Below are positions 58,068 to 58,624 of a stretch of 64,000 nt of DNA, one piece after another (positions within the stretch are counted from its first letter, which is position 1; each line of letters begins with the position of its first letter). The DNA is from an uncultured Candidatus Marinamargulisbacteria bacterium (GTDB lineage: Bacteria > Margulisbacteria > Marinamargulisbacteria > SXXA01 > JAHFDB01): NCBI GenBank assembly GCA_964517775.1, contig CAZFCP010000013.1, forward strand, positions 397 to 64,396, written 5' to 3'. Position numbers and translations under genes: made by a program. The notes under the pieces are model-generated. The model had not been told where the DNA came from. It made no database searches and was given only the letters and a program-made list of their open reading frames with translations.

Positions 58068-58624
58068 AATATTTCACTCCATTTACATTTCCAGACACGG
58101 CCAGCTGCACCAGATAATTATTCACACCGGATACCTTTGTAAACGCTACACCGTTTTCCCATTTAATCGGGTCAGCAAAAAGAAGCGTAGCATTAGAGTT
58201 GTCCGAATAATTAATCAATAAAAACAGTTTTGAATAAAACACCGTGTTAATACCGGTAAGTGGTCTTGCAAATGTCACAGTAAGATTCGTGTTTGCAACA
58301 TTTAAAATTTGAACATTGCTCAAACTCCAGTTAATAGTAACCGTAGCACCTGTTGGAGACGAAGCCGGTGCTAGAAAACTCAGACCCCGATTCAACTGAG
58401 ACTTTCCCTGAACAACAAATTCAACCTGGGGTGTTGTTGTGCCTATCCCAAGCTTTAAACGTTTTGTCGTTGCATCAACTGTAACCGTCATTCCAGATTT
58501 GACTGAATCCATCTGAAAAAAAAACGGGCGCTTTGCCGATGTTGTCGTTTGTGCCGATACAAAACTTTGGCAAAAAAAGAGCAGAAAAATAAAAATGGGA
58601 ATGAAATCTCATTGCTTTCATCAT
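58054..58624 (-). pseudogene. Paralog family member C, interrupted by a frameshift at an A9/T9 homopolymer (phase-variable gene or pseudogene)
   Basis: The N-terminal signal-peptide ORF (MMKAMRFHSHFYFSALFLPKFCIG...APVFF) is in frame +1 relative to the body ORF (58054..58512, MDSVKSGMTVTV...KLGIGTTTP...). Deleting one base of the 9-nt homopolymer at 58516-58524 fuses them in frame. Confidence 0.45.

Follow-up and report, generated by a model that had tools for sequence, protein, structure and literature searches.

Along the minus strand of the 64-kb stretch of DNA analysed here (hereafter, the window), a run of nine T residues lies where one reading frame of a small, putatively secreted protein appears to give way to another, raising the question of whether this homopolymer switches the gene on and off, or whether the gene is broken elsewhere and the run is a bystander. 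A preliminary description of the locus placed the run (A9 on the plus strand, T9 on the minus strand) at 58516–58524, exactly where we find it, and proposed that it separates the signal peptide of a secreted paralog from the body, with T9 acting as a slipped-strand phase-variation switch or, failing that, marking a sequencing indel or a decaying copy. Several of the mechanical elements of that proposal hold. The minus-strand ORF beginning MMKAMRFHSHFYF... does enter the run and terminates 13 codons beyond it; the body does lie in the frame reached by going from T9 to T8, giving a contiguous ORF of 189 aa; and the gene is indeed disrupted, its intact form of ~190 aa (protein P0002) comprising a signal peptide and the family domain, as in its neighbours, the two downstream paralogs that are 24–31% identical to it. 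We argue here that the gene (paralog A) is very probably broken at 58604–58606, ~80 nt upstream of the run, and that the T9 run is an incidental set of in-frame Phe codons, the lesion itself most likely being a very recent, strain-level loss of function, with an error in the consensus as the less likely option.

Organisation of the locus

Drawn with the paralogs pointing right, the locus runs from the atp operon (pointing left) through a 67-aa gene and paralogs A, B and C, followed by a lectin-domain gene, to priA (pointing left), with coordinates given in Table 1. The JGI contig L054 has the same gene order, including the 14-nt overlap of A and B. Paralogs A to C are a conserved three-gene operon of small predicted secreted proteins, occupying 56930–58624 on the minus strand of the window and 2236–3974 in L054. 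The fourth gene was recognised by its Lectin_C domain (27.1 bits against a cut-off of 22.6); it is missing from L054, where priA adjoins paralog C. The lysine-rich 67-aa protein upstream of the operon is identical in Logan contig L055 and 77% identical in L003 (MAG nzgw233), and a 67-aa gene stands at the same place in L054. Its intrinsic terminator (58665–58693 plus the tail) is conserved in L055 and L054 with changes in both loop and stem, and the T10 tail of that terminator is the only homopolymer in the window longer than T9. Conservation across the window, L055 and L054 also marks out the stretch at 58625–58658 as probably the operon promoter, although a sigma-70 scan did not list it. In this arrangement a strong terminator would end the 67-aa gene, to be followed by the probable promoter and then by the start of paralog A at 58624. 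Two T-runs in this intergenic region differ in length by one base between the window and L055 (2015–2047), namely the terminator tail (58659–58668; T10 against T9) and the promoter spacer (58639–58645; T7 against T8), with the coding T9 unchanged.

Table 1. Features of the paralog operon and its flanks, in window coordinates and in the order in which the minus strand is read.
Feature	Position	Strand	Description
Upstream 67-aa protein	58716..58919	(-)	Basic, lysine-rich; no family; between atpB and the paralog operon
Intrinsic terminator of 67-aa gene	58659..58693	(-)	13-bp stem + T10 tail
Conserved stretch, candidate operon promoter	58625..58658	(-)	CAAGTT(T/G)TTCTG-T7/8-(G/A)CGATA, about 35 nt, from the window/L055/L054 alignment
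Start codon and codons 1–7 of paralog A (MMKAMRF)	58604..58624	(-)	Positively charged n-region, now out of the gene's frame
Actual lesion	58604..58606	(-)	T3 here, T5 in the closest relative; 2-nt deficit
Rest of the true signal peptide	58552..58605	(-)	FIPIFIFLLFFCQSFVSA, in the body frame; predicted cleavage after VSA
Mature paralog A	58054..58551	(-)	N-terminal linker, LGIGTTTP motif, ~120-aa beta-sandwich C-terminal domain
T9 run	58516..58524	(-) (A9 on + strand)	TTT-TTT-TTT, encoding Phe35–37 in the intact protein of 190 aa
Premature stop	58475..58477	(-)	Reached from ATG 58624; 49-aa product; ORF 58475..58660 in the ORF list
Paralog B	57444..58067	(-)	207 aa, signal peptide; 14-nt overlap between its start and the 3′ end of paralog A
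Paralog C	56930..57439	(-)	169 aa, signal peptide
C-type lectin-domain secreted protein, fourth gene	56044..56973	(-)	309 aa; Pfam Lectin_C E = 7e-6

The AtpA protein of the window is 82–84% identical to those of Candidatus Margulisiibacteriota / Marinamargulisbacteria MAGs, and on this measure the organism is a relative of the Margulisiibacteriota. At the same place upstream of atpB, contig L030 (2189–7817, minus strand) carries four larger tandem paralogs of 414–641 aa that have signal peptides and contain the motif GNVGIGTDTPSEKLQVSGN; the MAG to which it belongs is labelled 'uncultured Rickettsiales', a label that looks doubtful given an AtpA 77% identical to that of the window. Elsewhere in the window, three giant ORFs lie on the minus strand: one of 2207 aa (44729–51352) has Big_3_3, Big_13, fn3 and Ig-like domains, and those of 1977 aa (14068–20001) and 1679 aa (4027–9066) had no Pfam match at E ≤ 1e-5. 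An Rfam scan of the window returned only two tRNAs.

Intact alleles and the position of the break

The protein cluster of paralog A has two members, P0001 (145 aa, from a 72-kb NCBI contig), which matches the state of the window, and P0002 (190 aa, from a 160-kb NCBI contig), which is the intact form and comes from a sister NCBI assembly identical to the window in the proteins of paralog A (body), B and C. Among relatives for which DNA was available, the closest came from the independent sample SRR25018336 and is represented by the Logan contigs L055 (94.7% nucleotide identity), reached via the identical 67-aa upstream protein, and L001 (96.4%). Joined by a 26-nt overlap, these two contigs give an intact ORF of 190 aa (182/190 identical) with T5 at the site of the break and T9 in frame (positions 61–69 of L001). 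The split between them, where L055 ends and L001 starts, falls within the signal-peptide coding region at ~58559–58584 in window coordinates, and may reflect either low coverage or a branch in the assembly graph, for instance where this T-rich stretch is polymorphic. More distantly, the syntenic ortholog in L054 (P0008) is an intact protein of 193 aa (43% identical, E = 5e-54).

Comparison of these sequences locates the break at codons 7–8. The window reads ATGAGATTTCATT where L055 reads ATGAAATTTTTCATT and L054 reads ATGAGAATTTTCCGT, so that the codons AGA-TTT-C in the window correspond to AAA-TTT-TTC in the close relative and to AGA-ATT-TTC in the syntenic ortholog. In longer context, the window has ATG AGA TTT C followed, across the break, by ATT CCC, compared with ATG AAA TTT TTC ATT TCC in L055 and ATG AGA ATT TTC CGT in L054. 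The 2-nt deficit cuts codons 1–7 (MMKAMRF) off from the frame of the remaining gene, and the severed residues belong to a conserved N-terminus of the form MMxxM(R/K)xF (MMTSMRIF in L054, MMKVMKFF in the Logan relative; P0002 begins MMKAMRFFIPIFIFLLFFCQSFVSAQTTTSAKRPFFFQMDSVKSG...). Inserting TT at 58604–58606 yields a 190-aa ORF that is identical to P0002 at 190/190 residues, such that a single defined indel restores both the full ORF and the intact protein, whereas deleting one T from the T9 run yields the contiguous 189-aa ORF as a chimera rather than P0002. The body of paralog A has no second lesion and is 100% identical to P0001/P0002. A search for an alternative start found no ATG, GTG or TTG in the body frame from the stop at 58609–58611 to ATG 58512, which is the start of a 152-aa body ORF (MDSVKSGMTVTV...). 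Intact full-length counterparts thus comprise P0002 (190 aa), the joined Logan contigs L055 and L001 (190 aa) and the syntenic P0008 (193 aa).

We propose that T5 at codons 7–8 became T3, so that ribosomes initiating at ATG 58624 would read MMKAMRF and then 42 out-of-frame residues before meeting the stop at 58475, ending translation after 49 codons. In the next frame the true hydrophobic core and cleavage site, together with the entire body, would remain intact, but would be left with no start codon. The likely outcome is a null or a non-secreted allele of a protein whose secretion is itself predicted, and a polar effect on the overlapping paralog B is conceivable.

The true signal peptide and a test of the reading frame

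In the preliminary description, the signal peptide was taken to be the N-terminal ORF MMKAMRFHSHFYFSALFLPKFCIG..., cut off from the body at the T9 run. Our comparisons show instead that this peptide is an out-of-frame reading, and that the true signal peptide is continuous with the body through T9 in one frame. Translated back through the run, the body frame reads FIPIFIFLLFFCQSFVSAQTTTSAKRPFFFQMDSV, identical to residues 8–43 of P0002, and across the run itself this frame reads KRPFFFQMDS, again as in P0002. Read back from ATG 58512, the window gives D-FIPIFIFLLFFCQSFVSAQTTTSAKRPFFFQMDSVKSG..., identical to residues 8–190 of P0002, of which the remainder of the signal peptide accounts for residues 8–25. 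The T9 run lies ~10 residues past the predicted cleavage site and in the same frame as the gene body. The order on the minus strand around it is ...GGCAAAGCGCCCG-TTTTTTTTT-CAGATGGATTCAGTC..., and the ORF that crosses it in the other frame reads MMKAMRFHSHFYFSALFLPKFCIGTNDNIGKAPVFF SDGFSQIWNDGYS* and ends at the stop at 58475–58477.

In the true frame the N-terminus has the expected parts of a Sec-type signal peptide, with MMKAMR as n-region, FFIPIFIFLLFF as core and CQSFVSA-Q as c-region with small residues at −3 and −1. The signal-peptide call combined sequence rules with hydropathy, and cleavage after VSA is predicted from the −3/−1 rule. The best 12-residue Kyte–Doolittle mean was 3.0 for this N-terminus, similar to paralogs B (2.8) and C (3.1), compared with 1.5 for the peptide proposed previously, whose core is interrupted by H, S, P and K; the AlphaFold model places a helix at residues 3–16. 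Substitutions point to the same frame. Over the 73 nt that precede ATG 58512, 15 positions distinguish the window from the Logan relative, every one of them upstream of T9. Of the changed codons, 10 are synonymous and 3 nonsynonymous when read in the body frame, compared with 0 synonymous and 12 nonsynonymous in each of the two other frames. By this pattern, the region upstream of ATG 58512 evolves as coding sequence in the body frame.

The T9 run in its compositional background

Within the window, A/T runs number 59 at length 7, 14 at length 8, one at length 9 and one at length 10, the sole 10-mer being the terminator tail. These counts follow an ordinary geometric decay, in which T9 shows no excess over chance. 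Ten of the 14 A/T 8-mers lie inside ORFs of at least 150 aa (e.g. priA, with the run at 54587–54594, and atpB, with the run at 59430–59437), all of which are uninterrupted. Phe is encoded by TTT in 84% of cases (833 vs 154), and a Phe-Phe-Phe triplet is consequently expected to appear as T9 in ~60% of cases. The window census thus finds T9 neither longer nor commoner than composition and codon usage predict, and we consider it highly probable, as part of our overall explanation, that it is ordinary coding sequence in an AT-biased genome in which TTT is the default Phe codon.

The comparison of tract length in related genomes that the preliminary description called for could be made, and the variation it envisaged did not appear: the run is nine nucleotides long in both the window and the Logan relative, and the sister assembly reads FFF in frame. 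In L054 the corresponding site is CCT TTT GCT TTG TAT GTT GAT (PFALYVD), with no homopolymer. T5 and T9 in the sister assembly are deduced from its protein, in which FFF could in principle use TTC; its DNA around the gene start would be expected to read AGATTTTTCATT plus T9. Related genomes with DNA in the searched collections numbered only two and share ancestry with the window, and the constancy of T9 is for that reason weak evidence against slow phase variation. A search for contigs encoding P0001, P0002 and paralog B recovered no DNA of the sister assembly, and one via the 67-aa protein and AtpB returned only the Logan contig. Neither a scan of genome contigs with P0002 nor scans of metagenome contigs with P0002 and with the ortholog alignment gave matches, and two word-index protein searches returned just the window's own cluster and P0008, with no further orthologs for comparison of the tract.

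Alternative explanations

Each of the rival roles for the T9 run has some point in its favour. As a slipped-strand switch that is OFF at present and would be ON at T8, joining signal peptide to body, the run would sit suitably in the 5′ part of a secreted-protein gene, and T8 does produce the contiguous 189-aa ORF. However, intact alleles, both P0002 and the Logan relative, read through the run as in-frame FFF; the peptide that T8 would join is the out-of-frame one, with its 0 synonymous and 12 nonsynonymous changes and weak hydrophobic core; and the real break is the TT deficit upstream. The T8 repair does not survive the comparison, phase variation at T9 is not supported, and we regard this switch as extremely unlikely. 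What does survive of the preliminary description is the kind of explanation it offered as a fallback, an indel or a decaying copy, with the lesion moved from T9 to 58604–58606. Alternatively, T9 could be a contingency tract of intact alleles, ON at nine and OFF at eight or ten, independently of the upstream lesion. A 9-nt A/T run at codons 35–37, and so among the first 40 of the ORF for a secreted, tail-fibre-like protein, is suitably placed, coding homopolymers of the 64-kb window reach their greatest length in it, any slip would truncate the protein at about 47–51 aa, and its length of nine has been kept while 15 positions upstream of the run differ. These features recall the contingency loci of surface genes in Neisseria, Haemophilus, Campylobacter and Helicobacter, in that a homopolymer, here of nine, stands among the first 40 codons of a gene for a secreted, adhesin-like product, which a change of ±1 would truncate. 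Unlike at those loci, the OFF state here is not caused by the tract, since the frame is broken at 58604–58606, and no difference in tract length was found among the window, the Logan relative, the sister protein and the ortholog, the last of which does without the run altogether. Furthermore, Phe codon bias fully accounts for the run, there is no enrichment in the run-length decay, paralogs B and C have no such tract, and slippage is much rarer in A/T runs of nine than in the G/C runs that contingency loci typically contain. A contingency role in intact alleles is improbable on this evidence.

Runs of nine A/U nucleotides are long enough for measurable transcriptional slippage, and poly(A/U) transcriptional slippage reportedly rescues frameshifted genes in AT-rich endosymbionts. 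As in that system, a 9-nt A/U run lies here downstream of a frameshift and the arithmetic permits rescue, as −2 upstream and −1 at U9 sum to −3, so that slippage of RNA polymerase or the ribosome on U9 could partly restore the frame of the TT-deficient allele to give a 189-aa chimera. Endosymbionts are known among members of this phylum (PMC6784892). In contrast to the endosymbiont cases, 29 wrong residues would here replace the core of the signal peptide, leaving it defective; nothing is conserved in that frame, no stimulatory structure is present and the orthologs need no slippage, making such a product very unlikely. A gene with programmed frameshifting or slippage was rejected as a candidate, all relatives being in frame and the ortholog having no homopolymer. 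Together, the chance that T9 matters, whether as a slow contingency tract in intact alleles or as an RNA-polymerase slippage site partly rescuing the TT frameshift with a chimeric N-terminus, is in our judgement slim. The faintest of the candidates is that the gene starts at ATG 58512 and has a 5′ leader whose attenuator or intrinsic terminator uses T9 as its U-tract. A short GC-rich stretch (GGCAAAGCGCC) does precede the run, and the NCBI annotation contains the 145-aa product only, but the RNA structure search around T9 found just a 3-bp stem with a z-score of +1.0 vs shuffles, indicating no special folding; the relative does not conserve the GC-rich stretch; substitutions in the region follow a coding pattern; and a product from 58512 would be without the signal peptide found in all paralogs and most small homologs. 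We give this reading almost no credence.

The serious competitor concerns the origin of the TT deficit and leaves its position unchanged. If the deficit were an assembly or consensus error, the organism would carry an intact 190-aa gene, in keeping with the intact gene of a sister assembly that is identical in the A body, B and C proteins, and with an N-terminal 110 nt rich in T-runs (T3/5, T5, T5, T7, T9) of the indel-prone kind. Against this, short reads do not usually miscall a 5-mer by 2 nt, and long-read homopolymer trouble should break some of the longer runs, yet 10 of 14 8-mers sit in unbroken ORFs. Of the 44 ORFs in the window that reach 150 aa, only paralog A is broken. This pattern is unlike that of an assembly prone to homopolymer errors; as the one failure, an error of 2 nt in a 5-mer would be peculiar. 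An artefact is accordingly possible but the less likely account. Because the other 43 ORFs are long and unbroken, as are those that contain the 10 8-mers, the deficit is most likely a real variant, which we favour roughly twofold over an artefact, and we infer that its cause is biological. The otherwise perfect body implies that the lesion is either very recent or artefactual. In either case, the locus resembles the familiar class of young pseudogenes, null alleles and assembly indels in short homopolymers. A single TT indel (T5 to T3) lies close to the 5′ end of an ORF that is perfect in all other respects, a premature stop follows downstream of it, and the sister assembly and the relatives have intact alleles. 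Paralog A shows nothing unusual for that class, in which both biological lesions and artefacts are possible.

A family of tail-fibre-tip-like proteins predicted to be secreted

No Pfam or NCBIfam family was found for the three paralogs. The AlphaFold model of paralog A as a monomer had a mean pLDDT of 80.5, mostly 85–95 in the C-terminal domain. Foldseek against BFVD returned phage tail-fibre matches (top E = 3e-8, 166 at E ≤ 1e-3), and the PHROG family phrog_9017 (tail fiber protein) matched paralog B at E = 2e-6, with A and C weaker. Among solved structures, none matched below E = 1e-3, the best being a phage capsid spike at E = 2.8e-3. The C-terminal domain is similar in sequence and predicted fold to phage tail-fibre proteins, and the paralogs can be described as resembling phage tail-fibre tips, sharing with tip domains that carry the GIGTxxP neck motif a ~120-aa C-terminal beta-sandwich. 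They differ from these tips in being small stand-alone cellular proteins with a Sec-type signal peptide, encoded by a chromosomal operon that has the atp operon on one side and priA on the other, with no other phage genes, and in having neither a Pfam family nor a significantly similar solved structure.

A HMMER profile built from the three paralogs matched 2591 proteins at E ≤ 1e-3, which fall into small proteins composed of a signal peptide, the GIGTxxP motif and the ~120-aa C-terminal domain; longer proteins with the same domain at the end; and cellular giants in which the motif recurs up to 39 times (P0007, 5875 aa). The public annotation of paralog A (P0001, 145 aa, 58054–58491, minus strand) takes the second Met in the 152-aa ORF as its start and shows neither the signal peptide nor the frameshift.

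Conclusions

In conclusion, paralog A is an ordinary frameshifted gene, and the homopolymer that drew attention to it is incidental. The value of the result is mainly corrective, in that a homopolymer at an apparent ORF junction mimicked a phase-variation switch, and three related sequences show that the run consists of Phe codons. The appropriate annotation is that of a frameshifted secreted protein of 190 aa, and not that of a cytoplasmic one of 145 aa or 152 aa. As a modest by-product, the comparison brings to light a conserved operon of proteins, predicted to be secreted and resembling tail-fibre tips, that lies beside the atp operon in relatives of the Margulisiibacteriota and belongs to no Pfam family.
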